A stretch of 64,000 nucleotides of DNA from assembly GCA_021513695.1 (NCBI GenBank), contig CP084166.1:2912001-2976000 (forward strand), given 5' to 3'. The stretch comes from Candidatus Heimdallarchaeum aukensis. Its GTDB lineage: Archaea > Asgardarchaeota > Heimdallarchaeia > Heimdallarchaeales > Heimdallarchaeaceae. Of the stretch, positions 11,495 through 39,145 are shown one piece after another. Below the pieces are notes generated by a model that saw nothing but the letters and a program-made list of their open reading frames with translations, had not been told where the DNA came from and did no database searches. Made by a program: the position numbers and the translations under genes. Each line of letters opens with the position of its first letter. Positions within the stretch are counted from its first letter, which is position 1.

Positions 11495-13140
11495 TTATGT
11501 TTTATACTTTTTGAACTTTTTAGCTATAATAGTTATTACAGGTAAAGCGATAAAAATACTCCATACACTAAATGGTAAATCTATTGTTTGTTTATCTTGT
11601 GTAGTAGTTTCATTAGTATTATCAGAACTTGATTCATAAATTGCTTTTATTGATAATTTTAATTCATTGCTATTTCCAAAAACATCATAAGCAACCATTT
11701 TTATTGTATGTATTCCTTCTTCTGTAATGTAGGTATTAAGGTTAAATGAGATAGTAGTCCCATCAGTGTAACTATCGGTTTTAATCAATTCGTCGTCAAT
11801 GTAGAGTTCATAATAATCAGGATTTGCATCATATAATGTAAATTTCACTGTTTTACTAGTACCTATTACGTATTCAATTGCATGCCAATAGTCCATGTTA
11901 GTATCTATCTGGGGTGCATCATAATCATCTTGATAGGCTTCAGTATAGGCATTAACGTAAATTGTAATATTATTATTGTTTCCCCATTGATCGAAGGCTT
12001 CTATGTAGATTTCATTGGTTCCTTCTTCAAAGATATAATCTCGCAATTGCAAATGTTGCTCATTCTCTGGATACCATCCATAACCTTCATAAGGTACATT
12101 GGAAAGCGTTAGATTTCCATTAATATAAAGATTGTAAGTATCAGGATATTTATCGTTAATGTAGAAGGAAATGTCGTAATAATCCCCAATTCTGTAATAG
12201 TCAACATCATATATATTCTCGAATGTGGGAGGATCAGTCTCCGGTTGACTAGGAACGACATTAATTTCCTTTTCATAATACATTTCATTTCCTGAGGTAT
12301 CATTAGCAAAGAGGGATAAAATATGTCCGCCTGTTTCACTAAATAATTCTTTACCAGTAAAGTATATCTCAAAGTAGTTCTGATCATAGCTGCCTGATGA
12401 AATAATTTCATCGTTTAGTCTAATTTCGTAATAATCAGGGTTTTTCTCATTAAACCAAAAACTATATCGTTCTGCGCTTCCTAATTCATAGTAAGAGTTA
12501 ACATTCCACCATAAATCTGGTCTTTTTAAATCTGTTCCTTCAGGATAAGCTTTTACCCATACTGATTCTTTCCTATAATTTCCAAATTGATCATAGGTTA
12601 TAACAGTAAGGTTGTGCAATCCAACTTCATTAATAAGATCATTAAAGTTGTAGTAATAGTTAATTTGTTCAGAGTAATTTCCTGTATCATATAGAACTCC
12701 ATCAACATAAAATTCATAGTAATTTGGGTTATCATCCCAAGTATTGAACCAGAATTCTTCATAATCTCCGATAGCCCATTTATGTGGTTCTCCAAAATTT
12801 TTTTCTTCATACCAAGGCACATTTAAATCTGGAGGGTCTACATCCGTTCCACTGGGATAGATAGTTACAGGAACAATAGTAGAATAAGTAGTATTGACCG
12901 CGTCAGTAAACGTTATGTTAACTGTATAGTCTCCAACAGCCCATGTACCACCAATCCAAACATATAGTGTCCTATTTCCATAACCCTCATAATAGTTTGA
13001 CCAAAATTGTGTCAAATCTGACTGGTTATAATAGAATCTTGTTTCTACTTTCCAAGTAGTATCAGAATAAATATAAAGACATTTTAAGATCAGTTCCTTG
13101 TCTTCTACTCCTTTATATTCTTTATTTGTTTCTATTTGAC
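11495..13140. repeat. left arm of a ~1.4-1.65-kb near-identical inverted repeat (3' part of paralog B)
   Basis: Identical antisense ORFs occur at mirrored coordinates: 11882-12112 and 36009-36239, 12109-12411 and 35710-36012, 12598-12822 and 35299-35523. Mirrored coordinates sum to 48121. Confidence 0.85.
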
Positions 13141-14338
13141 TCTGCCAATCGGGAATAGGGTACCTGTCATCTTTTAATGAATAGGATTTTACGAATAAGT
13201 TGCCTTTTGCATCGTAAACTATTATTTTAAAATCTTTATGTATATCATACTGTATATATCCAAAGTAGTCAATTGGAGCGGTATAATTCAACTCTGTGCT
13301 AGTAATTGTTTGACTATCTACTAAATCCCATCTCCAAAAGCCATATTGATAGTTATGCACATAAAATTCCATTTTAACAACATCTTTAGAGAATAGGAAT
13401 GGAAAAGTTATTCCTGTTGTACTATTAGTTATAGGTTGAGTCCAGCTATTGTCCTTAAAAATAAAATATGGGACAAAAGAATTATCACTTGTAGAATAGA
13501 ACTTGCTTGCTTTAGTTAGAGTATATGTTTCAGAATTTTGGTTATTTTCCACACGGGTAAAATTAACATATGTATTGTAATCAGGTAAATATTCATAGAA
13601 ACTATAAAAAATATCATTATGATAATTTTTCTTATATTCTAGCAAAATTCCGGTGTTGTTGTCAACATAGTAATAACATTCATCGTAATTATAGCTGTGT
13701 GCTGTAGTCTCAACATCGTACCATGTCGAATTCCATGTGTCTTCCCACTCATTCATTTTACAATAATATATGTCTACTTGTAAAGTAAATACTTCACCAT
13801 TAACAACATATGTTCTAGTTTCTTGAGAAATGAATGTTGATGCTCCAAAATAACCTATTGGATCAAAAACTAGATCAGTGTAATTATTAAGGGTCCTATA
13901 ATCAGTATATCCCGAATCCCAAGAATAATTGATTATATCTTCATATTCATTTGAATTGTCTTTATACCAACCATCTGAATTCCATCTGTAATATGTGCTG
14001 TTCCAATAATAGATATAATCGGTGGCTCCCGTTGCAACATCAAAAACTTCAATATAGCTTGAACTTAGGTTTGTGTTTGTAACATTAAAAGCCCTAAGAA
14101 AATTATATTCTTCTTTCCTAAAGTGTACAGATTTGTAAGCATAATTTTCCTTATTATCATCTGGAAAGAATATTTCATTTGTATTAGATTCATAAACTTT
14201 CTTATAATTATAAACGAATTTATCTCCATTATTTAACTGATAAATCTCGGCATTTACTCCTACAGTTTGCAAACTTATGAAAGAAGTAAATGTAGCAATT
14301 AAGATCAAAGCAATAATTAAATTACTTCTTCTTATCAA
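11495..14338 (-). CDS. giant secreted surface glycoprotein, paralog B (947 aa)
   Basis: Same architecture as paralog A. TTG start preceded by GGGGTG. The C-terminal ~470 aa are identical to paralog C apart from a few residues. Confidence 0.7.
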   Translation of the reverse strand: MIRRSNLIIALILIATFTSFISLQTVGVNAEIYQLNNGDKFVYNYKKVYESNTNEIFFPDDNKENYAYKSVHFRKEEYNFLRAFNVTNTNLSSSYIEVFDVATGATDYIYYWNSTYYRWNSDGWYKDNSNEYEDIINYSWDSGYTDYRTLNNYTDLVFDPIGYFGASTFISQETRTYVVNGEVFTLQVDIYYCKMNEWEDTWNSTWYDVETTAHSYNYDECYYYVDNNTGILLEYKKNYHNDIFYSFYEYLPDYNTYVNFTRVENNQNSETYTLTKASKFYSTSDNSFVPYFIFKDNSWTQPITNSTTGITFPFLFSKDVVKMEFYVHNYQYGFWRWDLVDSQTITSTELNYTAPIDYFGYIQYDIHKDFKIIVYDAKGNLFVKSYSLKDDRYPIPDWQSQIETNKEYKGVEDKELILKCLYIYSDTTWKVETRFYYNQSDLTQFWSNYYEGYGNRTLYVWIGGTWAVGDYTVNITFTDAVNTTYSTIVPVTIYPSGTDVDPPDLNVPWYEEKNFGEPHKWAIGDYEEFWFNTWDDNPNYYEFYVDGVLYDTGNYSEQINYYYNFNDLINEVGLHNLTVITYDQFGNYRKESVWVKAYPEGTDLKRPDLWWNVNSYYELGSAERYSFWFNEKNPDYYEIRLNDEIISSGSYDQNYFEIYFTGKELFSETGGHILSLFANDTSGNEMYYEKEINVVPSQPETDPPTFENIYDVDYYRIGDYYDISFYINDKYPDTYNLYINGNLTLSNVPYEGYGWYPENEQHLQLRDYIFEEGTNEIYIEAFDQWGNNNNITIYVNAYTEAYQDDYDAPQIDTNMDYWHAIEYVIGTSKTVKFTLYDANPDYYELYIDDELIKTDSYTDGTTISFNLNTYITEEGIHTIKMVAYDVFGNSNELKLSIKAIYESSSDNTNETTTQDKQTIDLPFSVWSIFIALPVITIIAKKFKKYKT

Positions 14339-14746
14339 CTTAACACCCCAAAATAAAGTTTCTCAGAAATAATATTTAAAAATTACTAATTAAGTAATCG
14401 AGCTGAAATTTTTTTCTATTCTCTTTTTAGAACTTACTAATGATTCTTTTTTCCTTTTTCAGAAAAATTGTTATAATTGGCTGATGATTATAAATCTTAA
14501 AATCGAATATAGATACATTCAGAACTAAAGTTGTAATTATCTTTTAATTGATTTTATTTCATCTCATTCCACTTCATTTAATTTCATTTAATTTCAGTCT
14601 CAATGTTAAGCTAAAAAAGAGAGAATAGGATTCAATTAAAACAATTTTTCTTTCTTTTTTTAAAGCAGAATTTCTTCATTTTCTTATTAGTTTTAAAAAG
14701 TCTAAGATTCAATATTAGTTCTTTTCACTTTTGTTGAAAGTAAGTG

Positions 14747-15712
14747 TCATTTTTTCTTTTCAGCATTTTTTATGGCTACTATTTCTGCAGCTATACTTAT
14801 TGCTATTTCTTCTGGAGTTATACTGTTAATACTTATTCCTATTGGAGAGTGAACTTTTTCTAGCAATTCATCAGATATTCCTTTTTGCTTTAGATTCTCA
14901 AAAAGTTTCTTTTTCTTTGACTTACTAGCCATTAAGCCTATGTATTTGAATTTTTTATGGATAAGTTTTTCTAAAACCAATTCGTCGTACTTATGTCCAA
15001 ACGACATAATAGTTACATACACATTATTTCCTTCTGGTACATATTTTTCTATTTCTTCATAATCTATTACTTTTTTCACATTTGCGTAGTTATTGTTTTT
15101 CATTGTATCGAGATTTTCTCTATTGTCATAAACCGTAATATGGAAATCCAACGTTTTCATTATTCTAGAAAAGGCTAAAGATACATGTCCTCCTCCTACG
15201 ATTATTAATCTATTTCTCAAGCCTATATTTTCTTTAAATGTCCATTTTTCTCCTTCTTCTATGAATTCGTACTGCTTTTCTGACATTTTATCCAGTTCTA
15301 TTTTTAGTCCTTTTTCATTTATTGTAATTATTGCTTGTTCCGCCTTGTTATAAGCGTTTATTATTTTTTGTACTTCACTTTTATCTTTTTCAACTATAGG
15401 AACTATTGCAAACGTTTGTGTTCCTGAGCATACCATCCCTGATTTATGTTCTCCTCCTTTTTCATTATGTATCATAAACTCTTTTTCTGTAGTAAAGTCA
15501 TTTTTTCTTAGTTTTTCTTTCGCTCTTTCTATTAGTTGATATTCCGATAAGCCTCCACCCACTGTTCCTTCTGCTTTTTCTAGTGTTACAAACATTTTTG
15601 CTCCTTCTGCATTGGGAGCTGAACCTTTTCTTTCTATTATTTCTACTAGAACAACGTTTGAGCCTTTTTGAAGCTCAGATAATACACTTTTCCAAAACTT
15701 TTCATCATTCAC
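14747..15712 (-). CDS. xdhC: XdhC/CoxI-family molybdoenzyme maturation factor
   Basis: N-terminal SAPNAEGAKMFV...GTVGGG (XdhC_CoxI) and a C-terminal Rossmann segment LIIVGGGHVSLAFSRIM. Confidence 0.7.
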   Translation of the reverse strand: MNDEKFWKSVLSELQKGSNVVLVEIIERKGSAPNAEGAKMFVTLEKAEGTVGGGLSEYQLIERAKEKLRKNDFTTEKEFMIHNEKGGEHKSGMVCSGTQTFAIVPIVEKDKSEVQKIINAYNKAEQAIITINEKGLKIELDKMSEKQYEFIEEGEKWTFKENIGLRNRLIIVGGGHVSLAFSRIMKTLDFHITVYDNRENLDTMKNNNYANVKKVIDYEEIEKYVPEGNNVYVTIMSFGHKYDELVLEKLIHKKFKYIGLMASKSKKKKLFENLKQKGISDELLEKVHSPIGISINSITPEEIAISIAAEIVAIKNAEKKK

Positions 15713-15730
15713 GTTTCATCACTTTAGATT

Positions 15731-17989
15731 TTAAGAATTATTTTCATATAGGTAAAGTAAAAGTTTTTCTGGCGTTAATGGAGCCGAGTAAACCCATTCT
15801 TTATCTTTCCTAAATGCTCTTGTAGCGTTTTTTATAGCAAAATATGCTCCGATTCCGTACATGAATGGTGGCTCTCCTATAGCTTTAGATTTTAAAACTG
15901 CTTCTGGATTTTCTGCATTTTCTAGAAACTTCACCTTTATTTCGGGGGTGAATGGAAGATTTGGTACTTTATACGTTGCAAAGGAATTTGTCAAGATATG
16001 TCCTTCTTTGTACATTAGTTGCTCTATTGTCATCCACCCTATTCCTTGAAGTAACCCTCCTTCTGTTTGTCCTAAATCAACCAGATAATTTATACTCTTT
16101 CCTGCATCATGAACAATTGTTACTTTATCTATTGTATATGTTCCTCTTAAGCAATCTATTGTTACTTCTGTTAATGCTGCTCCAAAAACGTGGTAAGCAA
16201 AGGGTTTTCCTTTCTTTTCTTCTTTGTTAAAGAATATTTTAGGTGTAGCATACAAAGCTTGACTTGAAAGATTTACTCTACTCATGTATGCTGAATTTAC
16301 AAGTTCATTCCAACCTAGTTCTGTTTTCTTTCCTTTAACATATACATAATCTTCTTTTATTTCTATTTCCTCTGGTTGAACTTGAAGTTTCTCAGAAGCT
16401 ACTTTTTTCAGTCTTTCTACCAATCTATTACAAGCTATCTCTGCTGCCTTCCCATTCAAATCAGCCCCTGTACTCGCTGCTGTGGGTGAGGTGTTGATCA
16501 CTCTTGTTGTATTCGTACTTTCTATTCTTATTCTTTCAGGGTCTATTCCGAGAGCTAATGAAACTATGTGTCTAATTTTAACATTTACTCCTTGTCCCAT
16601 CTCTATGGCTCCAGTGCTTACACTTACGCTCCCATCTTTGTAAATATTCACTAGCGCTCCTGCTTGATTTAGAAAAGTACTTGTAAACGAAATGCCAAAG
16701 CAAATTGGCATGATTGAGAGACCTTTTTTCATGTACTTGTTCGATTGATTAAATTCTTCTATTTCTTTTTTCTTTTGTTCAAAATTCGTTTCTTTTAGTA
16801 GTTCTTCGAAGCTTCTTCTTGCATTTGATCTTTCTACTTTTTGCCCATAATGAAACTCGTCTCCTTCATTTAACAGATTTTTCTCTTGTAGAACATGTTT
16901 TGGAACACCCATTACTTCTGCAGCTTTGTCAATGGCTGCTTCTATCAAGAACATTCCTTGTGGTCCTCCGAACCCTCTAAAGGCTGTGAAAGGAGGTAAG
17001 TTTGTTTTACATGGATAACCTGTTACTTTTACATTTGGGATATAATATGAATTAGTAGAATGGAAAAGAGTTCTACTTAAGATAGCTGTTGATAGATCAG
17101 CACTTGCTCCAGAGTTCTGGTAAATAGATGCTTCAAAAGCTATAATTTTTCCCTCTTTTGTTAGACCTATTTTGTAATCACTTGAGTAGGGGTGTCTTTT
17201 TCCTGTCATCTGTATATCTTCTTTTCTGTTTAGAACAAGTTTTACTGGCCTTTTTGTATGGTATGCACCTAAAGCGCAAATAGCTGCCCACTGTGTAGCT
17301 TGATCTTCTTTTCCACCAAACCCTCCTCCTATTCTCTTAACATCTACTTCTATCTTATTCATATCTAAACCGAGTATTTTTGCTGTTGTACCTTGAACAG
17401 TAGTGGGAGCTTGAGTGCTGGAATAGATAAGAATCTTATCATTTTCATCAGGAATAGCTAATGCTGCTTGAGTTTCAAGATAAACGTGTTCTTGTCCTCC
17501 ATTTTCTACTGTTCCTTCAATAATAACATCACATTTTTCCCAAGCTGCATCGACATCTCCATTTGAAAGAGTATTAGATGGAGCAATAAAAAGACCTTTT
17601 TCTGCTGCTTCTCTCGGATCAAAAACTGCAGGAAGTTCTTCATACTCTATTTCTACCAACTTACTTGCATTTTTAGCTTGTTCTTTTGTTTCAGCTAAAA
17701 TTATCGCTATCGGTTGTCCTACGAATTCTACTTCGTCTTCTACTAATAGCACTTCATCTTGAATAATTCGCCCTAATTGATTTTCTCCAGGAATATCTTT
17801 AGAAGTAAGAATCTTGCATACTCCGGGGCTCTTTTCAGCTTTTTCTAAATTTAATTTAACTATTTTTCCGTGAGGAATTGTTGAAGTAAAAACAAATGCA
17901 TGTAACAAATTAGATGGTTCTGGTAAATCATCTACATACAAAGATTCTCCTTTTGTATGAGGAGCTAAAAATTCTTTAATTATTTTCAT
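15731..17989 (-). CDS. xdhB: xanthine dehydrogenase/aldehyde oxidoreductase family molybdopterin-binding subunit
   Basis: Contains the RIGGGFGGKED Mo-cofactor motif and an N-terminal a/b hammerhead region (752 aa). The 4-bp overlap with the upstream gene suggests translational coupling. Confidence 0.85.
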   Translation of the reverse strand: MKIIKEFLAPHTKGESLYVDDLPEPSNLLHAFVFTSTIPHGKIVKLNLEKAEKSPGVCKILTSKDIPGENQLGRIIQDEVLLVEDEVEFVGQPIAIILAETKEQAKNASKLVEIEYEELPAVFDPREAAEKGLFIAPSNTLSNGDVDAAWEKCDVIIEGTVENGGQEHVYLETQAALAIPDENDKILIYSSTQAPTTVQGTTAKILGLDMNKIEVDVKRIGGGFGGKEDQATQWAAICALGAYHTKRPVKLVLNRKEDIQMTGKRHPYSSDYKIGLTKEGKIIAFEASIYQNSGASADLSTAILSRTLFHSTNSYYIPNVKVTGYPCKTNLPPFTAFRGFGGPQGMFLIEAAIDKAAEVMGVPKHVLQEKNLLNEGDEFHYGQKVERSNARRSFEELLKETNFEQKKKEIEEFNQSNKYMKKGLSIMPICFGISFTSTFLNQAGALVNIYKDGSVSVSTGAIEMGQGVNVKIRHIVSLALGIDPERIRIESTNTTRVINTSPTAASTGADLNGKAAEIACNRLVERLKKVASEKLQVQPEEIEIKEDYVYVKGKKTELGWNELVNSAYMSRVNLSSQALYATPKIFFNKEEKKGKPFAYHVFGAALTEVTIDCLRGTYTIDKVTIVHDAGKSINYLVDLGQTEGGLLQGIGWMTIEQLMYKEGHILTNSFATYKVPNLPFTPEIKVKFLENAENPEAVLKSKAIGEPPFMYGIGAYFAIKNATRAFRKDKEWVYSAPLTPEKLLLYLYENNS

Positions 17990-19362
17990 AATTTAACCTC
18001 CATTTCAGGAAATAATGTCATAAAATGCGCAATAATTAATTGACGAACTAGTAGTCTTTTGTATTTTGCACTTCCTCTTACATCACTTATAGGACTTATT
18101 TCTGAGTCAGCTATTTCTAACGCTTCTCTAACTACTTCAGAATTAACCTCTTTATCATTTAGAAAGTTTGAAGTTTTTTCTAAATATTTAGGAACGGGAG
18201 CTACTCCTCCTACAGATAAATGGACATTCTTGATCTTATTTTCTTCTTTTTCAAACGATATTGCGCTGTTTACACTTGCTATATCTACATATTTTCGCAT
18301 AGCTACTTTTTCAAAATTGAAAAATCTCTTTTTTGATTTAATTCTTAACGATTCTACCACTTCTCCTTCTTCTAAATCCATTTGTTTGTATCCTTTGTAA
18401 AAATCTTTAAGAGGTAGAATTCTACTTTTTTCTCCTTTTCTCAATGATATTTCTGCTCCTAATCCTAAAAAATAGATTGTTAAATCTCCTATTGGAGACG
18501 CATTAACTAGGTTCCCTCCTAAAGTCGCTCTTATTCTTATTGGTAACGCAGAAACAACTCTTAAATCATTCTTTATATCAAAAAGCTCATTCAACTCTTC
18601 TGATAAGCGAATATCTTCCATACTCGCTAAAGCACCAATGTAAATATACCCATCTTCTTCCCAAATATCGTTTCTAATTTGCAGTTGAGACAGAAAAACA
18701 GGTTTTTCTATTTTCTCTCTTTGAACAAGTAAATCTGTTGCTCCTGCGACATTTGTTCCTTTACCATTTGATTCTAATTTTTCATTTAATTTCTCTAATT
18801 TTTCATGTATATTTTTAAAATATTCAGGAATAACGCCTAATTCAATTAGATAATTAACTCTCGCCGAATAATTAAGATCTTCTACTTTTATTTTTTCAGC
18901 TATTTTTTCTGCAGCACGCTTTATTGCTGCATAAGTTCCACATCTACACAAATTACCTTCAATTGCTGTTAAGATATCTTCTTTTACAAAAATTTCATTT
19001 AAGAAAAATCCAGTCAAACTCATAACAAAACCAGGAGTGCAAAATCCACACTGTGAAGCTCCTTCCTCCACTATTGCTTCTTGAATTGGAGTTAACTTTT
19101 CTTGATTTATTCCTTCAATAGTTACAACATGTTTTCCTATTATTTCTCCTAGAGGTAATATACAAGAAGTAACAGCTTTATATTTTACTGTAGATTCTTC
19201 CATTTCTCCAAGTAAAATCATACAAGCGCCACATTCTCCTTCATGACAAGCTTCTTTTACTCCAGTGAATCCTTTTTTTCTTAAAAAATCTAAAGTTGAA
19301 CTTCCTAAAGGAGCATCTATTTCTTCAATTTTGTTATTTAGTACGAACTTCATTTTTTTCAC
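17986..19362 (-). CDS. xdhA: xanthine dehydrogenase family 2Fe-2S + FAD-binding subunit (fused small/medium subunits)
   Basis: 2Fe-2S motifs CHEGECGACM, QCGFCTPGF and NLCRCGTY are followed by a CO-dehydrogenase-flavoprotein-like FAD domain. Confidence 0.85.
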   Translation of the reverse strand: MKKMKFVLNNKIEEIDAPLGSSTLDFLRKKGFTGVKEACHEGECGACMILLGEMEESTVKYKAVTSCILPLGEIIGKHVVTIEGINQEKLTPIQEAIVEEGASQCGFCTPGFVMSLTGFFLNEIFVKEDILTAIEGNLCRCGTYAAIKRAAEKIAEKIKVEDLNYSARVNYLIELGVIPEYFKNIHEKLEKLNEKLESNGKGTNVAGATDLLVQREKIEKPVFLSQLQIRNDIWEEDGYIYIGALASMEDIRLSEELNELFDIKNDLRVVSALPIRIRATLGGNLVNASPIGDLTIYFLGLGAEISLRKGEKSRILPLKDFYKGYKQMDLEEGEVVESLRIKSKKRFFNFEKVAMRKYVDIASVNSAISFEKEENKIKNVHLSVGGVAPVPKYLEKTSNFLNDKEVNSEVVREALEIADSEISPISDVRGSAKYKRLLVRQLIIAHFMTLFPEMEVKL

Positions 19363-19519
19363 TGTTTTCTATTCTACCAAACATATCATAGCTCAAAGTT
19401 TACCTTTTAATGAGCTATAATATACTCTATTTATTACAAAGTTTCTAATTTTACGATATAAGTCTTATTAATCAAACAATTTATTTTCTTATTTTTTATG
19501 CAAGTGATTTGTTTTTCAA

Positions 19520-20758
19520 TTATTGAGTTTCGAACATCTTAACTATTTCTTCTTTTGAATATGACTTACTTGAGATAACTCCTTCTACAGCTTTAATATC
19601 TTTTAATCCATTTCCAGTTACAGCGACACAGACAGAATCTTCTTTTCTTATTTTTCCTTCTTTTATTAATTTTTTCAATCCTGCATATGGTGCTACAGCA
19701 GCTGGTTCTGCAAATAAGCCTGTTTCTTTTCCTAATTCTGAAATTGCTTCCAATATTTCTTCATCACTTACAGTCACATAGTATCCTCCACTTTCAGCGA
19801 CATATTTACAAGCTTTAATTACATCCCTTGGTGTTCCCACACTTATACTATCGGCAACTGTTGAGCCTTTAATTGGATGAGGAGTATAAGGTTCTCCTTT
19901 GTCAAAAACATGTTTAATTGCAGCTATTCCTTCTGCTTGTACTCCTATTATTTTAGGTATTGATTCTATTAATCCTATTTCCTTAAACTCTTTAAAACCC
20001 TTATACAGAGAACTTACTACTGTTCCATCTCCCACTCCTACAAGAACATAATCTGGAACTTTGAAATCATTTTGTACTGCAATCTCAAAGGCTCCCGTTT
20101 TTTTTCCCTCCAACAAATAAGGATTTATTGCTGCATGTCTGCAATACCACCCTTTCTTCAACCCAAGTTCCAAAGATAGATCATAAACTTCATCATATGT
20201 TCCTTCTACAGCGAAAACTTTTGCTCCTGATATTTCTAGTTGAGCTCTCTTTCCTCCGGGTATAGTTGAGGGGACGAAAATATAAGTTTCCATGGGCGTA
20301 TGAGCATTTAGCATAGCTAAAGAAGAGGCAGCATTACCTGTTGAAGCACAGAAAACAGTATCATTTTTTTCATCCAGAGCCATATTTATTGCTATTGAAC
20401 TTGCTCTATCTTTGTAAGAACTTGAAGGATTAGACCCATCATATTTTAACATTAAATCTTTTAAACCCAGTAAATCGAATTTATATAAGGGAGTTCCTCC
20501 TACATAGGGATCAAATTTTCCTTTTGCCTTTGTTGGTAAAAGAAAATCAAATTGATACATTGAAGCTTTTTTATAGAAATTCTTCTGAACTACGACGGGG
20601 TTCTCTTTTATCTTTTCATAGTCATAGATCACTTCAAGTGTACCCATAATTGGTCCACATTTTTCACAGAAGTATAGTCCTGGTCTAGGTTCATATTCTT
20701 TTTTGCAAGAAATGCAACGAAGGAAGTAGCTGCTCATTTGAATTCCTCTTTTTTTCAT
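19520..20758 (-). CDS. threonine-synthase-like fold-type-II PLP enzyme with an N-terminal Cys4 zinc ribbon
   Basis: N-terminal CISCKKEY...CEKCGP plus the PLP-lysine motif SNPSSSYKDRAS. The position inside the catabolic cluster suggests a non-ThrC role. Confidence 0.55.
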   Translation of the reverse strand: MKKRGIQMSSYFLRCISCKKEYEPRPGLYFCEKCGPIMGTLEVIYDYEKIKENPVVVQKNFYKKASMYQFDFLLPTKAKGKFDPYVGGTPLYKFDLLGLKDLMLKYDGSNPSSSYKDRASSIAINMALDEKNDTVFCASTGNAASSLAMLNAHTPMETYIFVPSTIPGGKRAQLEISGAKVFAVEGTYDEVYDLSLELGLKKGWYCRHAAINPYLLEGKKTGAFEIAVQNDFKVPDYVLVGVGDGTVVSSLYKGFKEFKEIGLIESIPKIIGVQAEGIAAIKHVFDKGEPYTPHPIKGSTVADSISVGTPRDVIKACKYVAESGGYYVTVSDEEILEAISELGKETGLFAEPAAVAPYAGLKKLIKEGKIRKEDSVCVAVTGNGLKDIKAVEGVISSKSYSKEEIVKMFETQ

Positions 20759-21837: not shown

Positions 21838-21844
21838 TTTCCAA

Positions 21845-23155: not shown

Positions 23156-23162
23156 AATAGTC

Positions 23163-24494: not shown

Positions 24495-24588
24495 TAATTT
24501 GATTTTAAATTTTTCACAAATATAGTTTTGGTTGAGTTTCTGTTTTCAATACAAACAATTTAATATATATTTTATTTTTTACTAATTA

Positions 24589-26052: not shown

Positions 26053-26067
26053 ACAAAAAAAGAAAAA

Positions 26068-27924: not shown

Positions 27925-28046
27925 TAATCTATTATTAAAAAAAGCGTATATTAATATTAACTATCCAAGCTTACAAATTTAAACTCTTTAAAAAATGAAA
28001 AGAGAATATAAAAAATTTTAATTTACTAGGAAGAAAATTTCTTTTT

Positions 28047-29021
28047 TTATCCCATTGTTAGCCACATAACTGCTTTTGCTGTATGTAACCTATTTTCTGC
28101 TTCATCATAGATAACAGAATTTGGTCCATCTATTACTGAATCTTCTACCTCATTTCCCCTATCAGCTGGTAGAGCGTGCATGTAGATTACATCTTTTTTG
28201 GCTAGTTTCATCATCTCTTCTGTACATTTCCAGTCTTTGAATTGAGAGATATCTACATCTCCTTTTTTACCACTCCAGCTTCCCCAGTTTTTAGGTATGA
28301 CAACGTCTGCGTCTCTATAAGCTTCTTCCATATCATGTGTTATTCTAAATGATCCTCCATTTTCTTCAGCATTCTTTCTTGCTTCTTCTATAACCCAATC
28401 TGGCATCTCAAATCCTTCAGGGTAAGCTAAAGTCACATCCATTCCATATCTTGGGAAAAGTAAACTTTGTGTAAGTGGTACTGAAATGGGTTTCTTATGT
28501 GATGTAGCATAAGCCCAGATTATTGAAACTTTGAGGTTTTTTGTTTCTTTTTTCTTTTCAATAATTGTCATAAGGTCAGCTATTCCTTGCATTGGATGAT
28601 AAAGGTCATCTTGTAGACTCATAATAGGCACTCTTGAGTGTTTAGCCATGTCGTTCAAATATTTATTTCCAATTCCCCAGAAGCAGTTTCTGCAAGCTAT
28701 TGCATGGCCATATCTTGAAAGTACTGAAGCAGTATCTTTTGCTACTTCTCCATGAGATATTTGCATTGTAGAAGTATCAAGATAATTAGCATGTCCTCCC
28801 AACTGAGCTATTCCTGCTTCCATAGAGTTTCTGGTTCTTGTAGATTGTTCAAAAAACATCAAAAAAATCGTTTTATATGGCAGATAAGGTGTAGGTTCTC
28901 CTTTCAAGAATTTCTCTTTTAACTCAAAAGACACTTCTAGTAAAGTATCTATTTCTTCTTTTGTCCAATCACGTAATGTGATGAAATCTTTTCCTCTTAA
29001 TTTAGATCTCATATTTCTCAC
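28047..29021 (-). CDS. YgeW/ornithine-carbamoyltransferase-family carbamoyltransferase
   Basis: STRTR carbamoyl-phosphate motif, HPMQ, and HALP in place of HCLP. Confidence 0.8.
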   Translation of the reverse strand: MRNMRSKLRGKDFITLRDWTKEEIDTLLEVSFELKEKFLKGEPTPYLPYKTIFLMFFEQSTRTRNSMEAGIAQLGGHANYLDTSTMQISHGEVAKDTASVLSRYGHAIACRNCFWGIGNKYLNDMAKHSRVPIMSLQDDLYHPMQGIADLMTIIEKKKETKNLKVSIIWAYATSHKKPISVPLTQSLLFPRYGMDVTLAYPEGFEMPDWVIEEARKNAEENGGSFRITHDMEEAYRDADVVIPKNWGSWSGKKGDVDISQFKDWKCTEEMMKLAKKDVIYMHALPADRGNEVEDSVIDGPNSVIYDEAENRLHTAKAVMWLTMG

Positions 29022-29042
29022 CTATTTTTTTTCTTTTTATTT

Positions 29043-30248
29043 CTATTCTTTCTTCATCATTTCAGAATATTTCATTGGAATTAATGCATAAACCGCTGTA
29101 GCAATATCTAACTCTTTCTTAAACGTTTTTTCGTTAGGTGCATGAGCTTCTTCCTCATGTCCAGGACCAAAGCCTATGCAAGGAACATTGTGCATTCCCA
29201 TAATATATACTCCATTTGTGGAGAATGTCCATTTATCTAAAAGTGGCTTCTTTCCCATTATTTCTTCTGCGGTTTCTACCATCATCCCACAAAGAGGATG
29301 ATCTTCTTCTAAAACCCAAGTGGGGAAATAGCTATCCACTAGAGTGCGATAGCCAGTGTAAGAAGGTTCATTGTATGTGTACATTTCTACTTTTGCATTG
29401 TATTTTTTCACAGAAGGAAGATTTTTGATTTCATTTAGAGCTGTTTCTTTTGTTTCTCCAAAAGTTAACCTTCTATCTACTGATATGCTACATCCATCTG
29501 CTACAGCGCATCTTGATGGTGAACTTGAAAATATTTCTGTTACAGTTAAAGAGCCTTTTCCTAGAAACTCATCATTTTTTAGATCTCCATGTAGTTTTTC
29601 CAACTCTTGAATGATTTTAGCCATTTTATAGATAGCATTTTCTCCTCTTTCTGGAGCAGAACCATGAGCACTTATTCCTGTGGTTGTTACTTTTATTTCC
29701 ATTCTCCCTCTCTGTCCTCTGTTTACTTTCAAGGATGTTGGTTCAGTTAAAACTACAAATTCAGGTTCAATAACTTTTTCAGTCAAAATATGGTGCCAAC
29801 ATAGTCCATCACAGTCTTCTTCCTGAACAGAGCCTACTATCCAAACAGTGGTGTCCCCGACTATATCTAAATCTTTGATTATTTTTCCAGCATAGACCAT
29901 ACAAGCAAAGCCACCCTCTTGATCACTTGCTCCTCTTCCATAGATTATTTCGTCGTCTTCATATCCTTCATAAGGATCGTGTGTCCAGTTTTCTCTATTT
30001 CCCACGTCTACAGTGTCGATATGTGCGTCAAAAGCTATAACATGTTTTCCGTTTCCTATCCTTCCTAGAATGTTACCCATTTTATCTATCTTTATCTCAT
30101 CATAACCTAATTTTTCCATTTCTTGCTTTATACGTTCAATTAGTTCTTTTTCTTTCCCACTTGTACTGGGAATGCGAATCATATCCCTTAGGAATTTATA
30201 CATATCTTTTTTGTATTCTTCAATTTTTTCCATTACTTTATCTTTCAT
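29043..30248 (-). CDS. M20 family metallopeptidase/deacylase (YgeY-like)
   Basis: [12 protein letters not shown] and VQEEDCDGL metal-ligand motifs, and the position next to the carbamoyltransferase. Confidence 0.8.
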
Positions 30249-30257
30249 TTTTAACCC

Positions 30258-32903
30258 TCATCTTTTTTTTCTAGCTATAGGGAGCTCTGTTCTCCACTTT
30301 CCATCATATTGATAGAACGCGCCTGTTACTGCTCCTGCAGTTGGTACTAAACCTATTTCTCCCACACCCTTTGCTCCAAAACCACCAATTTCTTCAGGTT
30401 CTTCAATTATTATTACTTCTATTTCTGGAGTATCTTTAGCCTTTAATATTTGCAGATCTCTAATTTTTAATGAAACTGGAACACTCTTTGTTGTTGGAAA
30501 GTCCTCTGATAAAGTGTGACCTAAACCCATATGTATTCCTCCTTCTATCTGACCTGCAACAGCCAAAGGATTTACTGCTCTACCCACATCGTGAGCAGCC
30601 AGTATTTTCTTCAGTTTCCCGTTTTCATCAAGAAAAGCTACTTGAACTGCATAACTGAAAGCTAAATGTGTAATTGGGTTATCTACTGGGGTACCTGGCT
30701 TAACTGTTATGTTGGTAACATACTCACCATGATACTCTTTTCCTACTAATTCCTTAGGAGAGTGGTTTTTTAGGTCTTCTGCAAGTTTTTCTGCAGCATA
30801 CTTTGCCGCCATAGTATCAAGTGCTGTTGCTCTTGAAGCAGTTGTCATTCCACACTTTGTTTTATCGTAACTTATCGATTTTACATCCATCTTTGAAGGG
30901 TGGATATTTGTTAATTCGCTAACTGCTTGCGTTAAAACAGTAAATAATCCTTGTCCCATTTCAGTAAAACCAGTCAATATTTCCAACCTTTCGTCTTCAA
31001 GAACACGGATTAATACTCTACCTGTATCTTCGAGAGCGTTACCTATTCCTGTGTTTTTGATTCCACAAGCGATACCTTTTGGTCCTTTATAATTCTTATA
31101 CTGCTCTTTAACTGCATCTAAACATTTCTGTAAACCAACAACTGTTTTTGTCATTATTTGTCCAGTAGCAAAACGTTTTCCTTCTCTCAAGATGTTTCGT
31201 TCTCTTATATCAAAATCATCTATTTCCTTTCCATCATCCCTCATCATCGCAGCAATCATGTTTAAACATGTTTCTATTGCAAAAGAGGTTTGATTTACTC
31301 CAAATCCTCTCATAGCTCCACAAGGAGGATTATTAGTGTAAACAGCTGTTGCATCTACATCTATTGCAGGCAAATAATATGGACCGCATGAGTGCCCTGC
31401 AGCACGTTCAACTACAGCTCCTCCAACAGAAGCATAAGCACCAGTATCGCCTATTATCCTTATTCTTGCTCCAGTTAGCTTACCATTTTCATCAGCTCCA
31501 ACTTCATATCGCATAATCATTGGATGGCGTTTAGGATGCATTCTCAAAGATTGCTCCCTAGTTAGAACTGTTTTCACTGGTTTCTTCAAGAGATAAGCTG
31601 CAAGAGCTGTTTGGGCTTGAACAGACAGATCTTCTTTACCTCCAAAAGCTCCCCCATTTGTTACCAGTTCAACTATTACATTCTCTTTTTCTAATCCTAG
31701 CACTTCTGCTATTTGTCTCTGATCTTCATGTACTCCTTGCCCTTGACTATAAACATGTACACCTTTGTCTGTGGGTAAAGCAAGCGAAGCTTCTACTTCT
31801 AGAAAAGCATGTTCTATTCTTTGAGTTCTAAATTCTTGTTTAACAAAATATTTTGAATTCCTAAAAGCTTCTTCCACATCTCCCCTGCTGAAAACAGTTC
31901 GGCTGAGTATATTACCGCTTTCATGTATTTTTTCAGCTGTAGTGTCCATAGCTTTTATAGGGTCATCTAAAGGTTCGAGTACCTCATATTCCACCTTAAT
32001 TTTTTCTACTGCTGCACGTGCATGAAACATACTATCTGCTACTACCATAGCTATTACATCGCCAACATAGCGAGTTGTTTCTCCTTCATCTACAAAAATT
32101 GGCCAATCAGGAATAATATGACCAATGAATCTTTTTCCAGGGACATCTTTAGCAGTAAGTATTTTGACTACACCGCAAGCTTTTTCTGCTTCTGTAAGGT
32201 CAATTTTCTTTATTACTGCTCTAGGGTGTTCACTCAATAAAAATGCTCCATGAAGCATTCCTTCTACTTTCATATCAGCAATATATGGTTTTTGACCTAG
32301 AGCCATGTCTAGACCACGATATCTTTTTGTACTATAACCTACTCCATCTTTCTTTGGTTCATATTCTCTCTTTAAACCATATTTTTCTCCAAAGAAATCT
32401 GCTCTTCGTGGAGGATCATCAACATTAACGGGAGTTTTTGTTTTCCAATGTTCCTCTGCTGTTTCTATCGCATCTATAATACGTTGATAACCTGTACATC
32501 TACATAAATTAGGACTTAATGCCCTAGCTTTCTCTTCTCTTGTAGATTTTGGATGAGTGTCAAGAAAAGACTTTATCCTTAACATAATTCCAGGTGTGCA
32601 GAAACCACATTGTATTCCTCCCTCTTTAACTAATGCGTTAGCTAATAGCAATTTTTCTTCTTTTTCAAGACCTTCTATTGTTATAATGTTTTTTCCTTCT
32701 ACACTTGATGGATCGCGATTACAAGAAGTCATAGCTTTTCCATCGATTAAAACTGTACATGCTCCGCAGTATCCTTGTCCAGAACATCCATCTTTACAAC
32801 TGGTGATATCACATTTTTCTCTTAAAACGTCTAATAAACTCATACCTTCTTCATATTCTATTGTAATTTCTTCTCCATTAAGAATAAATGTTGTTTCTTT
32901 CAT
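30258..32903 (-). CDS. XdhD-like fused 2Fe-2S + molybdopterin-binding xanthine-dehydrogenase-family oxidoreductase
   Basis: An N-terminal CKDGCSGQGYCGACTV / QCGFCTPGIM / NLCRCTGY domain is followed by the Mo domain with GGAFGGKED (881 aa). Confidence 0.85.
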   Translation of the reverse strand: MKETTFILNGEEITIEYEEGMSLLDVLREKCDITSCKDGCSGQGYCGACTVLIDGKAMTSCNRDPSSVEGKNIITIEGLEKEEKLLLANALVKEGGIQCGFCTPGIMLRIKSFLDTHPKSTREEKARALSPNLCRCTGYQRIIDAIETAEEHWKTKTPVNVDDPPRRADFFGEKYGLKREYEPKKDGVGYSTKRYRGLDMALGQKPYIADMKVEGMLHGAFLLSEHPRAVIKKIDLTEAEKACGVVKILTAKDVPGKRFIGHIIPDWPIFVDEGETTRYVGDVIAMVVADSMFHARAAVEKIKVEYEVLEPLDDPIKAMDTTAEKIHESGNILSRTVFSRGDVEEAFRNSKYFVKQEFRTQRIEHAFLEVEASLALPTDKGVHVYSQGQGVHEDQRQIAEVLGLEKENVIVELVTNGGAFGGKEDLSVQAQTALAAYLLKKPVKTVLTREQSLRMHPKRHPMIMRYEVGADENGKLTGARIRIIGDTGAYASVGGAVVERAAGHSCGPYYLPAIDVDATAVYTNNPPCGAMRGFGVNQTSFAIETCLNMIAAMMRDDGKEIDDFDIRERNILREGKRFATGQIMTKTVVGLQKCLDAVKEQYKNYKGPKGIACGIKNTGIGNALEDTGRVLIRVLEDERLEILTGFTEMGQGLFTVLTQAVSELTNIHPSKMDVKSISYDKTKCGMTTASRATALDTMAAKYAAEKLAEDLKNHSPKELVGKEYHGEYVTNITVKPGTPVDNPITHLAFSYAVQVAFLDENGKLKKILAAHDVGRAVNPLAVAGQIEGGIHMGLGHTLSEDFPTTKSVPVSLKIRDLQILKAKDTPEIEVIIIEEPEEIGGFGAKGVGEIGLVPTAGAVTGAFYQYDGKWRTELPIARKKR

Positions 32904-33514
32904 TGTTCATTCACATACTTTTTCCATTCTTCTAAAGTGTTTAGATTAAGTGTAACTTTTCTATCATTAACATTAATAATACGCACTTCATCATTTTTTT
33001 CTATTTTCTTTAATTCATAATCTAACCTATGATCGCTAGAACAAGACAATATATGATCAATAAACTTAGGAGATAGAAAGACAGGATGACCTTTTTTTCC
33101 TTTAAAACTAGGGATTACTGCAGAAACACCTTCAACCGCTTCAAGTATCTTGAACCAAGTCTCCTTATCTGGGCAAGATACATCAATTGGTAAAACAAAG
33201 GCTCCTTCATCACTAAACTCTCTCACTTTTTTTAATCCACATTGAATAGAAAAAAACTGACCTTTTTCTGTTTGTAAATTTCTAACGAGTATTTCTTTTC
33301 TTAATTTTGGAACTAGATCAACATAAAGATCATAATCTTTTCCAAGAACAATAACTATCTTTTCAAAACCAATCTCTTTTAGCTTTTCTATTTGGTTTTG
33401 TATAAAAAAAGTTCCTTTATAATCTAACAATCCTTTAGGTTTTCCCATTCTCCTTGAATCCCCTGCAGCAAGAATAATAACAGGAGGAAAAAAAAGATCT
33501 CTTTTCACATTCAA
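32900..33514 (-). CDS. mocA: MobA-like NTP transferase, molybdenum cofactor cytidylyltransferase (MocA/YgfJ-like)
   Basis: VIILAAGDSRRMGKPKGLL signature. Overlaps the XdhD-like gene by 4 bp. Confidence 0.75.
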   Translation of the reverse strand: MNVKRDLFFPPVIILAAGDSRRMGKPKGLLDYKGTFFIQNQIEKLKEIGFEKIVIVLGKDYDLYVDLVPKLRKEILVRNLQTEKGQFFSIQCGLKKVREFSDEGAFVLPIDVSCPDKETWFKILEAVEGVSAVIPSFKGKKGHPVFLSPKFIDHILSCSSDHRLDYELKKIEKNDEVRIINVNDRKVTLNLNTLEEWKKYVNEQ

Positions 33515-33767
33515 CCTTATCTTTCCAACATTCTTTTTATAGTAGTCATTTTTAAATAAATAAAAAGTTTATGAAATGAAAAAATAACTGATATTATTTA
33601 ACTAAATGCAAGGATTCAGAAAAACAAGTCTTATAATTCTAATGGAAGTAAAAAACAAAAAATTCTTTTTCTTTCTTTTCATCTAATGGAGGTTACAATA
33701 TACGTTTTCAGAATTTTTTAGAAGATAATAAAACAATGTTTAAATAATCCTTCATGCAAATTTAGTT

Positions 33768-36626
33768 TTGAGGTCATTCGTGTTGAAGAAGAAAAAAAGT
33801 TTAATTATAGCTTTAATTTTGGTTGCAACATTCACCTCTTTTGTAAACTTTCAAACAGCAGTTGTGAATGCAGAGAATTATCAGTTAAATAATGGAGATA
33901 CATTCGTCTATGATCATATATACAATTATGAAACTAATACAAGGGAAATATTCTTTCCTGATGAAAATAGAAATGATTATGCATATGAATCTATCTATAT
34001 TAATCAAGAAGAACATAAATACCTTAGAGGTTTTAATGTTACAAATACAGATTTAAGTTCAGATTACATCGAAGTTTTTGAAGTTAAAACAGGTGCCACT
34101 ATTTACTCTTATTATCAAAATAACACGTATTATAGATGGGGAGCAGATGGTTGGTATAAAGACTACTCAAATGAATACAACGATATCACATATTATTCTT
34201 GGGATTCAGGAAATGCTAATTATAGGAATTTAAATAATTATTCCAATCTAGTTTTTGATCCAACTGGTTATTTTGGAATATCAACATTTATCTCACAAGA
34301 AACTAGAGCATATAATGTTAATGGTGAAGTATTTACTTTACAAATAGATGTTTACTATTGTAAAACGAATGAGTGGGAAGATACATGGAATTCGACATGG
34401 TATGGTGTTGAGACTCCAACGCACAGTTTTAATTACGATGAATATTATTACTATGTTGACAACAACACTGGAATCTTGCTAGAATATAAGAAAATTCATC
34501 ACTATGATGTTACTTACAAATTTTATGAATACTTAGCTGATTATAATACTTATGTTAATTTCACACGTGTAAGAAATAAAAAGACTACAGATACATACAC
34601 ACTAATTAAATCTAGTAACTTCTATTCTACTGTTGATAATTCCTTTGTCCCATATTTTATTTTTAAGGACAATAGCTGGACACAACCTATAACAAACAGT
34701 ACAACAGGAATAACTTTTCCATTCCTATTTTCTAAAGACGTCGCGAAACTAGAATTTTATGTGTATAACTACCTATATGGATGTTGGAGATGGGATTTAG
34801 TAAATAGCCAAACAATTACTAGCACAGAGTTGAATTATACTGTCCCAATAGACTACTTTGGATATATACCTAATAATGTAAATAAAAATTTCAGAATTAT
34901 AGTTTATGATACAAAAGGCAACTTATTTATACAGTACCAATCTATTGAGGATGATAGGTACCCTATTCCCGATTGGCAGAGTCAAATAGAAACAAATAAA
35001 GAATATAAAGGAGTAGAAGACAAGGAACTGATCTTAAAATGTCTTTATATTTATTCTGACACTACTTGGAAAGTAGAAACAAGATTCTATTATAATCAGT
35101 CAGATTTAACACAATTTTGGTCAAACTATTATGAGGGTTATGGAAACAGGACATTAAATATTTGGATTAGCGGTATATGGGCTGTTGGAGACTATACAGT
35201 TAACATAACGTTTACTGACGCGGTCAATACTACTTATTCTACTATTGTTCCTGTAACTATCTATCCCAGTGGAACGGATGTAGACCCTCCAGATTTAAAT
35301 GTGCCTTGGTATGAAGAAAAAAATTTTGGAGAACCACATAAATGGGCTATCGGAGATTATGAAGAATTCTGGTTCAATACTTGGGATGATAACCCAAATT
35401 ACTATGAATTTTATGTTGATGGAGTTCTATATGATACAGGAAATTACTCTGAACAAATTAACTATTACTACAACTTTAATGATCTTATTAATGAAGTTGG
35501 ATTGCACAACCTTACTGTTATAACCTATGATCAATTTGGAAATTATAGGAAAGAATCAGTATGGGTAAAAGCTTATCCTGAAGGAACAGATTTAAAAAGA
35601 CCAGATTTATGGTGGAATGTTAACTCTTACTATGAATTAGGAAGCGCAGAACGATATAGTTTTTGGTTTAATGAGAAAAACCCTGATTATTACGAAATTA
35701 GACTAAACGATGAAATTATTTCATCAGGCAGCTATGATCAGAACTACTTTGAGATATACTTTACTGGTAAAGAATTATTTAGTGAAACAGGCGGACATAT
35801 TTTATCCCTCTTTGCTAATGATACCTCAGGAAATGAAATGTATTATGAAAAGGAAATTAATGTCGTTCCTAGTCAACCGGAGACTGATCCTCCCACATTC
35901 GAGAATATATATGATGTTGACTATTACAGAATTGGGGATTATTACGACATTTCCTTCTACATTAACGATAAATATCCTGATACTTACAATCTTTATATTA
36001 ATGGAAATCTAACGCTTTCCAATGTACCTTATGAAGGTTATGGATGGTATCCAGAGAATGAGCAACATTTGCAATTGCGAGATTATATCTTTGAAGAAGG
36101 AACCAATGAAATCTACATAGAAGCCTTCGATCAATGGGGAAACAATAATAATATTACAATTTACGTTAATGCCTATACTGAAGCCTATCAAGATGATTAT
36201 GATGCACCCCAGATAGATACTAACATGGACTATTGGCATGCAATTGAATACGTAATAGGTACTAGTAAAACAGTGAAATTTACATTATATGATGCAAATC
36301 CTGATTATTATGAACTCTACATTGACGACGAATTGATTAAAACCGATAGTTACACTGATGGGACTACTATCTCATTTAACCTTAATACCTACATTACAGA
36401 AGAAGGAATACATACAATAAAAATGGTTGCTTATGATGTTTTTGGAAATAGCAATGAATTAAAATTATCAATAAAAGCAATTTATGAATCAAGTTCTGAT
36501 GATACTAATGAAACTACTACACAAGATAAACAAACAATAGATTTACCATTTAGTGTATGGAGTATTTTTATCGCTTTACCTGTAATAACTATTATAGCTA
36601 AAAAGTTCAAAAAGTATAAAACATAA
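33768..36626 (+). CDS. giant secreted surface glycoprotein, paralog C (952 aa)
   Basis: Same architecture as paralogs A and B. TTG/GTG start after GAGGT. Its 3' ~1.65 kb is the inverted copy of the 3' part of paralog B. Confidence 0.7.
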   Translation: MRSFVLKKKKSLIIALILVATFTSFVNFQTAVVNAENYQLNNGDTFVYDHIYNYETNTREIFFPDENRNDYAYESIYINQEEHKYLRGFNVTNTDLSSDYIEVFEVKTGATIYSYYQNNTYYRWGADGWYKDYSNEYNDITYYSWDSGNANYRNLNNYSNLVFDPTGYFGISTFISQETRAYNVNGEVFTLQIDVYYCKTNEWEDTWNSTWYGVETPTHSFNYDEYYYYVDNNTGILLEYKKIHHYDVTYKFYEYLADYNTYVNFTRVRNKKTTDTYTLIKSSNFYSTVDNSFVPYFIFKDNSWTQPITNSTTGITFPFLFSKDVAKLEFYVYNYLYGCWRWDLVNSQTITSTELNYTVPIDYFGYIPNNVNKNFRIIVYDTKGNLFIQYQSIEDDRYPIPDWQSQIETNKEYKGVEDKELILKCLYIYSDTTWKVETRFYYNQSDLTQFWSNYYEGYGNRTLNIWISGIWAVGDYTVNITFTDAVNTTYSTIVPVTIYPSGTDVDPPDLNVPWYEEKNFGEPHKWAIGDYEEFWFNTWDDNPNYYEFYVDGVLYDTGNYSEQINYYYNFNDLINEVGLHNLTVITYDQFGNYRKESVWVKAYPEGTDLKRPDLWWNVNSYYELGSAERYSFWFNEKNPDYYEIRLNDEIISSGSYDQNYFEIYFTGKELFSETGGHILSLFANDTSGNEMYYEKEINVVPSQPETDPPTFENIYDVDYYRIGDYYDISFYINDKYPDTYNLYINGNLTLSNVPYEGYGWYPENEQHLQLRDYIFEEGTNEIYIEAFDQWGNNNNITIYVNAYTEAYQDDYDAPQIDTNMDYWHAIEYVIGTSKTVKFTLYDANPDYYELYIDDELIKTDSYTDGTTISFNLNTYITEEGIHTIKMVAYDVFGNSNELKLSIKAIYESSSDDTNETTTQDKQTIDLPFSVWSIFIALPVITIIAKKFKKYKT
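34980..36626. repeat. right arm of the inverted repeat (3' part of paralog C)
   Basis: See the left-arm entry. Identity decays about 16 nt past the stop codons. Confidence 0.85.
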
Positions 36627-39077: not shown

Positions 39078-39145
39078 AGAAGATTAATATTTCTTTTTTT
39101 TTATTTTGAAAAACGAAAAAAGAGAAAAAAGAATTCTTTATCCAT

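Follow-up and report, generated by a model that had tools for sequence, protein, structure and literature searches.

Probable gene conversion between inverted, putative surface-protein paralogs and an inverted purine-catabolism cluster in Candidatus Heimdallarchaeum aukensis

In a 64,000-nucleotide stretch of the Candidatus Heimdallarchaeum aukensis chromosome (hereafter the window), two inverted paralogous genes for predicted surface proteins, which we call B and C, have near-identical 3' halves and bracket a purine-catabolism (xdh) cluster, while a third paralog, A, lies in tandem with B. Homologous recombination between the inverted genes B and C very probably gave rise both to gene conversion of their 3' halves and to an inversion of the intervening segment relative to the sister species H. 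endolithica. We observed the near-identical repeat itself, a mosaic pattern of identity along the two genes, lineage-specific haplotypes at their 3' ends, and an interspecies inversion with breakpoints inside the genes. The elements concerned are listed below, with coordinates as positions in the window.

8271-11162, minus strand: paralog A, an open reading frame (ORF) of 963 amino acids in tandem with B
11495-14338, minus strand: paralog B, 947 amino acids (K9W45_12915, UJG40722.1; identical sequence)
33783-36626, plus strand: paralog C, 947 amino acids from the annotated ATG (K9W45_12985, UJG40736.1; identical sequence); mechanical ORF start at 33768
11482-12944, minus strand: left near-identical arm, 1463 nt, with one mismatch at 11620
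35177-36639, plus strand: right near-identical arm, reverse complement of the left arm
12975-13165, minus strand: second-tier tract, 3 of 191 nt mismatched (98.4% identity to 34956-35146), divided from the main arm by a 30-nt patch
12945-35176, no strand: segment that a crossover within the arms inverts, 22,232 nt, comprising the two 5' halves and the xdh cluster

A repeat search of the window returned inverted arms at 11450-14339 and 33782-36671 that are 2890 nt long, 91% complementary and 19,442 nt apart, and an ungapped base-by-base comparison aligned the 947 codons of B and C without an indel at a coordinate sum of 48121. The 1463-nt tract reaches 13 nt beyond the stop codon, and its sole mismatch, A at 11620 and G at 36501, exchanges Asn and Asp at residue 907. 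Upstream of the tract follow a divergent patch at 12945-12974, with 7 mismatches in 30 nt, and the second-tier tract; from 13166 to the start codons B and C share ~80% identity, and the flanks beyond the genes match at random level. The boundary of the tract, at residue 465/466, coincides with the invariant motif GDYTVNITFTDAVNTTYS, which separates the variable N-terminal half of the protein from its repeat-containing C-terminal half. Depending on whether the second tier is included, near-identity therefore extends over 1463 nt at 99.93% or 1684 nt at 99.3%, confirming the near-identical inverted repeats of 1.4-1.65 kb that an earlier note had described from this DNA. Its further claims that the last ~470 codons are near-identical and that the coordinates mirror each other around a sum of 48121 also hold, with a single difference in residues 466-947 (482 codons) and with the mirror symmetry extending over the whole gene. 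The mirrored spurious ORFs it had pointed to, each of 100 amino acids, are present at 12109-12411 (minus strand) and 35710-36012 (plus strand), but they lie on the same strands as B and C and are out-of-frame sense ORFs on the coding strand, not antisense ORFs as claimed. The flanks differ, as stated there, and are unrelated, but homology is not confined to the 3' halves and spans the whole of the 2.9-kb genes.

Divergence along the two genes is strongly mosaic. By the Nei-Gojobori method, the number of synonymous substitutions per synonymous site (dS) between B and C is 0.68 over residues 1-395, where the nonsynonymous value (dN) is 0.15, falls to 0.19 over residues 396-470 and is 0 over residues 471-947. 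In this last part there are no synonymous differences at 279 synonymous sites which, given a dS of 0.68 in the 5' part, excludes chance as the source of the identity. For comparison, flanking orthologs of H. aukensis and H. endolithica have dS values of 0.09-0.49, and within the tract dS is 0 between B and C versus 0.28 to the H. endolithica ortholog; paralogs within the genome are thus more alike here than orthologs between relatives. Judged by these sequence distances, the 5' halves of B and C are at least as old as the species split and the arms far younger. That the duplication predates the split follows from the B/C 5' dS of 0.68 against 0.09-0.49 in the flanks, and from the presence of a third copy in H. 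endolithica.

Related metagenome-assembled genomes (MAGs) provided contigs from GCA_054384295.1 and from JGI 3300033148, 3300033149 and 3300033156 (L004, L007-L010 and L013-L016). All of these contigs break inside the paralogs, and the haplotype comparison covers the ~290 nt where they overlap. One contig, L010, represents the copy linked to xdhC, as it extends the B-type 5' sequence that L008 and L009 tie to this gene, and 37 of the ~1420 sites in its 3' half are not as in the H. aukensis arm. The copies linked to the TPR gene on the other side (L013-L016) carry the L010 states in their last 135-325 nt. At one such site, for example, L010 and L013-L016 read GTGTTCACTC, in contrast to GAATACATAC in both B and C of H. 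aukensis; the intact H. endolithica paralog, P0002, agrees with the relatives. Each lineage has its own haplotype that is common to both copies, indicating concerted evolution. In addition, contig L004, which occupies the C position, consists of a C-type tip, a divergent stretch, a stretch with 95-97% identity to B and then sequence at 75-89%, and is identical to the arm only from ~12214, showing that the tract boundaries differ between strains. Conversion operates in H. endolithica too, where the A-position gene and a pseudogene have exact runs of 305, 318, 132 and 93 nt in common. Taken together, the mosaic dS, the old duplication and the lineage-specific haplotypes shared by the 3' ends support the recent gene conversion that the earlier note had proposed, with C probably as the donor and B as the recipient.

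We compared the window with 41.7 kb of the long-read Canu genome of H. endolithica (CP084167.1, 3157839-3199497; L006 and L001 joined, positions given as endo). A scan of genome contigs found one H. endolithica locus only, and the other end of the cluster was reached via the ortholog of the MocA-like gene. Both flanks are collinear between the two species: endo 1-3907 corresponds to window 4467-8376 at 94% identity and carries an M42 peptidase, an MFS transporter, a DHDPS-like gene and the 3' tip of the A-position gene, and endo 28838-37904 corresponds to window 33805-42873 at 89.6% identity and carries a paralog followed by the TPR, ApbA and POR genes. The xdh cluster between them is reversed, with endo 9604-27139 matching window 33911-14648 in three blocks (endo 9604-15486 to 33911-28035, 15471-22020 to 26084-19533, and 22294-27139 to 19495-14648).

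The genes at the two ends of the reversed cluster locate the breakpoints. P0002 stands after xdhC and before the TPR gene; its 90 nt of upstream sequence match the upstream region of B and its 5' half is B-like, being nearer to B than to C in most 150-nt windows, while its 3' flank is that of C (447 of 461 nt identical). At the other end a decayed third copy adjoins the MocA-like gene. The 5' tip and upstream region of this copy are contiguous with the 5' tip of C (a 92% alignment from endo 9604), and the arms and its 3' half (endo 6857-8316) share 82.6% identity. Un-inverting H. aukensis within the arms gives the order DHDPS, A (minus), C5'-B3' (minus), MocA to xdhC (plus), B5'-C3' (plus), TPR, which is the order of H. 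endolithica; the inversion therefore happened since the two species split, with breakpoints inside the bodies of the paralogs. Since P0002 is B-like through most of its 5' half, the crossover can be placed in the 3' ~1.6 kb. The reversed cluster, the collinear flanks and the intragenic breakpoints bear out the prediction that recombination between the arms inverts the segment between them. As for relatives, H. endolithica carries the segment inverted, but the related MAG contigs break too early: on both the TPR side and the DHDPS side, contigs of close relatives all end inside the paralogs or at most ~325 nt from their 3' end, leaving the orientation unreadable.

We propose that general homologous recombination of the RadA type between B and C would account for both outcomes. 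Repair without crossover, that is, conversion, would have homogenised the 3' 1.46 kb in one recent tract of 1463 nt and one older tract of ~190 nt, with the 5' halves keeping their old divergence. A crossover in the homologous 3' parts would instead flip the 22-kb interval, swapping the promoter and 5' half of each gene between the two downstream flanks and reversing the cluster on the chromosome. Such a crossover in the 1.46-kb coding arms alters at most one residue (N907D), and because the arms are identical bar one single-nucleotide polymorphism, both proteins are essentially unchanged by the inversion. Inversion may be continuing today.

An alternative that we regard as unlikely is that variation at this locus is itself selected, the three copies serving to reshuffle surface-protein modules, for example in evasion of viruses, and the inversion being a by-product. 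It is similarly doubtful that the A/B/C locus serves to vary a major surface protein of Heimdallarchaeaceae through recombination, with the flip of the xdh cluster as a recurrent polymorphism of the population. Frequent exchange among the three copies would then put new N-terminal mosaics on a homogenised immunoglobulin (Ig)-like stalk, the H. endolithica pseudogene would be a decayed donor, and virus pressure might play a part. Relatives do carry different mosaics, such as the C-type tip, divergent stretch and B-like stretch of L004, the pseudogene has exact tracts in common with its intact neighbour, dN is 0.08-0.24 versus 0.013-0.055 in neighbouring genes, and the locus is rearranged differently in every genome examined. 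However, omega lies between 0.06 and 0.38, giving no signal of positive selection at the scale of the gene, and homogenisation in H. aukensis affects the conserved Ig-like stalk instead of the variable N-terminal part. Moreover, A, B and C of H. aukensis are all full-length ORFs, each with its own upstream region, unlike the copies of systems with an expression site and silent cassettes, and adjacent paralogs can evolve in concert without any selection for variation.

We consider it very improbable that recombination between B and C is mimicked by an assembly artefact, in the form of a collapsed repeat contig placed twice or a 22-kb interval oriented arbitrarily in Nanopore scaffolding. The history of the assembly gives this some footing: Wu et al. 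2022 published two circularised Asgard genomes, and for H. aukensis, one of the two, a metaSPAdes assembly of 150-bp Illumina reads was scaffolded by LRScaf on Nanopore reads from DNA amplified by multiple displacement and then polished with Pilon (PMC8813620). This procedure left the locus unresolved, and a stretch of ~1 kb was closed by polymerase chain reaction (PCR) and Sanger sequencing (Methods, PMC8813620). The gap-closing primers match the window as follows.

11385-11422, plus strand: forward primer, exact match in the unique A-B intergenic flank
12999-13024, minus strand: reverse primer 1, exact match; 1 mismatch at the C copy, 35097-35122
13421-13446, minus strand: reverse primer 2, exact match; 3 mismatches at the C copy, 34675-34700

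Both reverse primer sites lie within the diverged 5' part of B. The primers thus bracket the B arm, identifying it as the gap of the published assembly, and the arm was sequenced independently, from a PCR product whose ends lie in the A-B flank and in the B-specific 5' part. The amplicon verifies the B copy and the junction running from the A flank through the arm to the B 5' half; because unique sequence joins this 5' half to xdhC, the orientation of the cluster is verified as well. In addition, Logan contigs from two independent read sets, SRR15988954 and SRR15988959, which probably stem from the H. aukensis project, match window 36610-43402 and 36610-39099, respectively, at 100% identity. 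Both begin at 36610, exactly 30 nt (k-1) inside the edge of the C arm at 36639, and the longer one stops 30 nt into the first CRISPR repeat. Such breaks are expected if a 31-mer graph, which we assume for the assembler, branches at the start of a repeat that has two contexts. The short-read contigs of the related MAGs break inside the same genes, and the arms are not literally identical, with one mismatch within them and more beyond 12944. On the strength of the gap-closing PCR and the Logan breaks we judge the repeat to be real, and it is also the weak spot of the assembly. The warning in the earlier note that this is a classic place for an assembly error was apt insofar as the B arm was the gap of the published genome, but a collapse artefact is contradicted by the B-specific PCR and the Logan breaks. 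A further Logan contig of 58.9 kb (L017, SRR15988954) ends inside the 3' end of paralog A, at window 8531, and is collinear with the left part of the window as judged from gene calls only, not from a comparison of DNA.

If the 3' half of one gene had recently been duplicated, in place of conversion between old paralogs, near-identity with a sharp boundary would also be expected, yet such a partial duplication is very improbable, given that both genes are full-length and indel-free with old 5' halves (dS 0.68) running in frame into the arms. H. endolithica has a copy at the corresponding position, a second, older tract of 98.4% identity lies beyond the divergent patch, and the tract boundaries differ in relatives, L004 being identical only from ~12214. 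Equally improbable is a programmed, site-specific inversion of the inverton or shufflon type, with a dedicated recombinase acting at short intragenic sites: surface-protein genes are the usual targets of such switches, and H. endolithica has a 1.29-kb inversion in place with junctions at conserved motifs, one of them within ~30 nt of the tract edge, but that inversion has no flanking inverted repeat, the repeats of H. aukensis are kilobase-long coding sequence instead of short inverted repeats, and no recombinase, integrase or invertase domain was found in the scanned ORFs of the 64-kb window, a few ORFs of 100-240 amino acids being unscanned. Since the H. aukensis inversion changes neither protein, no coding switch is possible.

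Several observations weigh against homologous recombination between B and C as a complete account, or limit how far it reaches. H. aukensis and the related MAG contigs diverge in a patchy manner, by 0.2 to 14% per 500 nt, which suggests frequent homologous exchange between strains in the population. Against such a background, the jump in divergence at the tract edge may partly reflect interstrain recombination. At the 37 tract sites that split H. aukensis from L010, P0002 sides 14:19, which leaves the direction of conversion ambiguous. Because multi-mapping reads were available to Pilon, polishing could have removed a few genuine differences between the arms, and the gap-closing primers are specific to the assembled isomer, so that the other isomer would have gone unreported. 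No outgroup carries the same locus, from which the inversion could be polarised. Finally, the evidence on orientation consists of assembled sequences.

The jump in divergence between B and L008-L010 had been considered as proof of a pre-conversion allele; given the patchy background, we retain it as supportive only. In the comparison with L007 and L008 across 13762-22763, mismatches per 500 nt ranged from 1 to 69, and a block at ~15600-12975 was near-identical.

Recombination between inverted paralogs has a known counterpart in the tufA and tufB genes of Salmonella, where up to 50% of recombination events give an inversion, and where the promoter of one copy becomes joined to the terminator of the other in hybrid genes whose coding sequences are retained (PMC6735719; PMC5485169). 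Like tufA and tufB of Salmonella enterica, B and C are kilobase-scale inverted paralogs on one chromosome that are near-identical through non-reciprocal recombination, and recombination between them inverts the interval, keeping the coding sequences and joining the promoter side of each gene to the downstream flank of the other. Unlike in that system, only the 3' half is homogenised, the 5' halves being ~20% divergent, a third, tandem copy is present, and the genes encode fast-evolving, putative surface proteins of an orphan family as opposed to an essential conserved factor. The host is an Asgard archaeon, with RadA presumed in place of RecA, and the inversion is seen as a difference fixed between sister species instead of one measured in the laboratory.

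Inverted rRNA operons or insertion sequence (IS) copies are also known from bacteria and archaea to flip the segment between them by homologous recombination, and are classic break points of short-read assemblies. The repeats described here differ from these in being protein-coding paralogs of one archaeal family, and there is no IS at the H. aukensis junctions, a single DDE transposase being found beside the H. endolithica copy only. Among surface-protein paralogs, babA and babB of Helicobacter pylori and pilE and pilS of Neisseria form conversion mosaics. The Heimdallarchaeum family resembles them in being small, in swapping segments, in that close relatives carry different mosaics, and in the tracts that the H. 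endolithica pseudogene and the intact copy have in common. Unlike pilE/pilS, vlsE and msp2, H. aukensis has no layout of expression site and silent cassettes, and conversion has affected the conserved stalk.

As an instance the case is new; the mechanism itself is textbook knowledge. It documents gene conversion in Heimdallarchaeum, together with an inversion between sister species whose breakpoints lie inside the converted genes. It also explains the sole unresolved gap of the published 'closed' H. aukensis genome and shows why short-read MAGs of the family break here, which matters for synteny and gene counts taken from Asgard MAGs, and the orphan family of putative surface proteins may be of use in work on the cell envelope or on virus receptors. 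Heimdallarchaeum was placed in the Asgard clade closest to eukaryotes (PMC8813620), and in a term search the same paper gave no hit for inversion, rearrangement, gene conversion or xanthine.

Further rearrangements mark the H. endolithica locus. Its third copy (L006 6857-9760, ~3164695-3167598) is a pseudogene with ORFs of 304, 64, 59 and 279 amino acids, of which the 5' segment, 8316-9603, constitutes the 1.29-kb inversion in place. The junctions of this inversion lie at the conserved motifs NNGDTF| and GDY(S/T)(I/V)N|ITF, and one of them is within ~30 nt of the H. aukensis tract edge. No inverted repeats were found at these junctions, and no series of successive crossovers between paralogs reproduces the structure, so that this origin was rejected. 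An IS element (L001 8417-9400, DDE_Tnp_1, 327 amino acids) lies between xdhC and P0002 in H. endolithica and is absent from the corresponding 400-nt spacer of H. aukensis. We rejected inversion mediated by an IS because there is none at the H. aukensis junctions and only one copy in H. endolithica. In two MAGs near H. endolithica (GCA_054387635.1 and GCA_054387415.1; L002, at 8493, and L003), a remnant 3' half of the third paralog ends ~150 nt short of the usual junction and abuts metallophosphatase, deoxyhypusine synthase, rhodanese and NosD genes in place of the xdh cluster, which is another rearrangement at the same locus. Paralog A (8271-11162) and L006 3802-6651 are positional orthologs that are alike only at their 3' tips (~94%); their bodies have a dS above 1.2, and for the H. 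endolithica gene the similarity to B and C exceeds that to A. Reshuffling of the tandem copies has taken place.

Within H. aukensis, A shares 72-80% identity with B and C and forms tandem direct repeats with B in the repeat search of the window. An exact-match comparison found no runs of at least 80 nt between A and B or C, and A shows no recent conversion tract with either. A conserved stretch of ~65 nt lies upstream of both A and B, and the upstream region of C differs. The exact sequence of protein A is not on record in the protein look-up that returned B and C.

The three proteins belong to an orphan and fast-evolving family. Scans of A, B and C found no Pfam families, and among NCBIfam models only sub-threshold matches of the OmpL47 type. 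A search of 5.8 billion proteins returned only 5 homolog clusters, 4 of them from Heimdallarchaeaceae and the fifth a JGI metagenome protein, and metagenome contigs searched with the A/B/C family alignment gave no match. All three proteins have a hydrophobic, signal-like segment at the N-terminus, judged by eye only, 12-13% Tyr, 18-20 NxS/T sequons, and a hydrophobic C-terminal helix followed by KKFKKYKT. An AlphaFold2 model of the paralog, built on an alignment of 7 sequences and with a mean predicted local distance difference test score (pLDDT) of 57, left residues 1-289 unmodelled, gave beta structure at 290-500 and a helix at 923-946, and placed four Ig-like beta-sandwich domains with pLDDT 75-90 in residues 500-900. 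Foldseek searches with this model returned generic multi-Ig proteins only, with template modelling (TM) scores of at most 0.17. On these grounds A, B and C are read as putative membrane-anchored surface glycoproteins of an orphan family that is so far found only in Heimdallarchaeaceae.

The interval between the arms is occupied by the following cluster, identified by conserved-domain scans.

14747-33514, minus strand: purine-catabolism cluster

Its gene content bears out the assignment of the interval to an xdh/purine-catabolism cluster. It comprises XdhC, XdhB- and XdhA-type subunits, SsnA, YgeY, a D-hydantoinase-like enzyme, a YgeW/OTCase-like enzyme, a PreA/PyrD-like Fe-S enzyme, a MocA-like transferase, two pyridoxal phosphate (PLP) enzymes, the second on the plus strand, and a PQQ/FG-GAP protein; a selenium-dependent xanthine dehydrogenase (XDH) scored above the curated NCBIfam cut-off. 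The cluster represents a bacterial-type set for anaerobic purine degradation and is conserved in several Heimdallarchaeaceae contigs. In its middle, H. aukensis alone carries a 1.95-kb insertion (26085-28033), absent from H. endolithica and from the MAG contig L004, which encodes the PQQ/FG-GAP beta-propeller protein of 618 amino acids; its N-terminus is signal-like, and a membrane anchor with a basic tail lies at its C-terminus.

A type I CRISPR-Cas locus is situated in the right-hand part of the window. Its array (43373-45865) is built of units of 66-67 nt with the 30-nt repeat ATTTCAATCCCACTATGGTCTGATTCTAAC. A block of ~300 nt at 43641-43940 is duplicated at 44571-44870 with 99% identity, so that several spacers are duplicated within the array. 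Adjoining the array, at 46232-55945, are the type I cas genes (cas1, cas4, cas3, cas7 and a Csa3-like regulator), together with two ORFs that have no Pfam match. H. endolithica carries a homologous CRISPR-Cas locus with different spacers.

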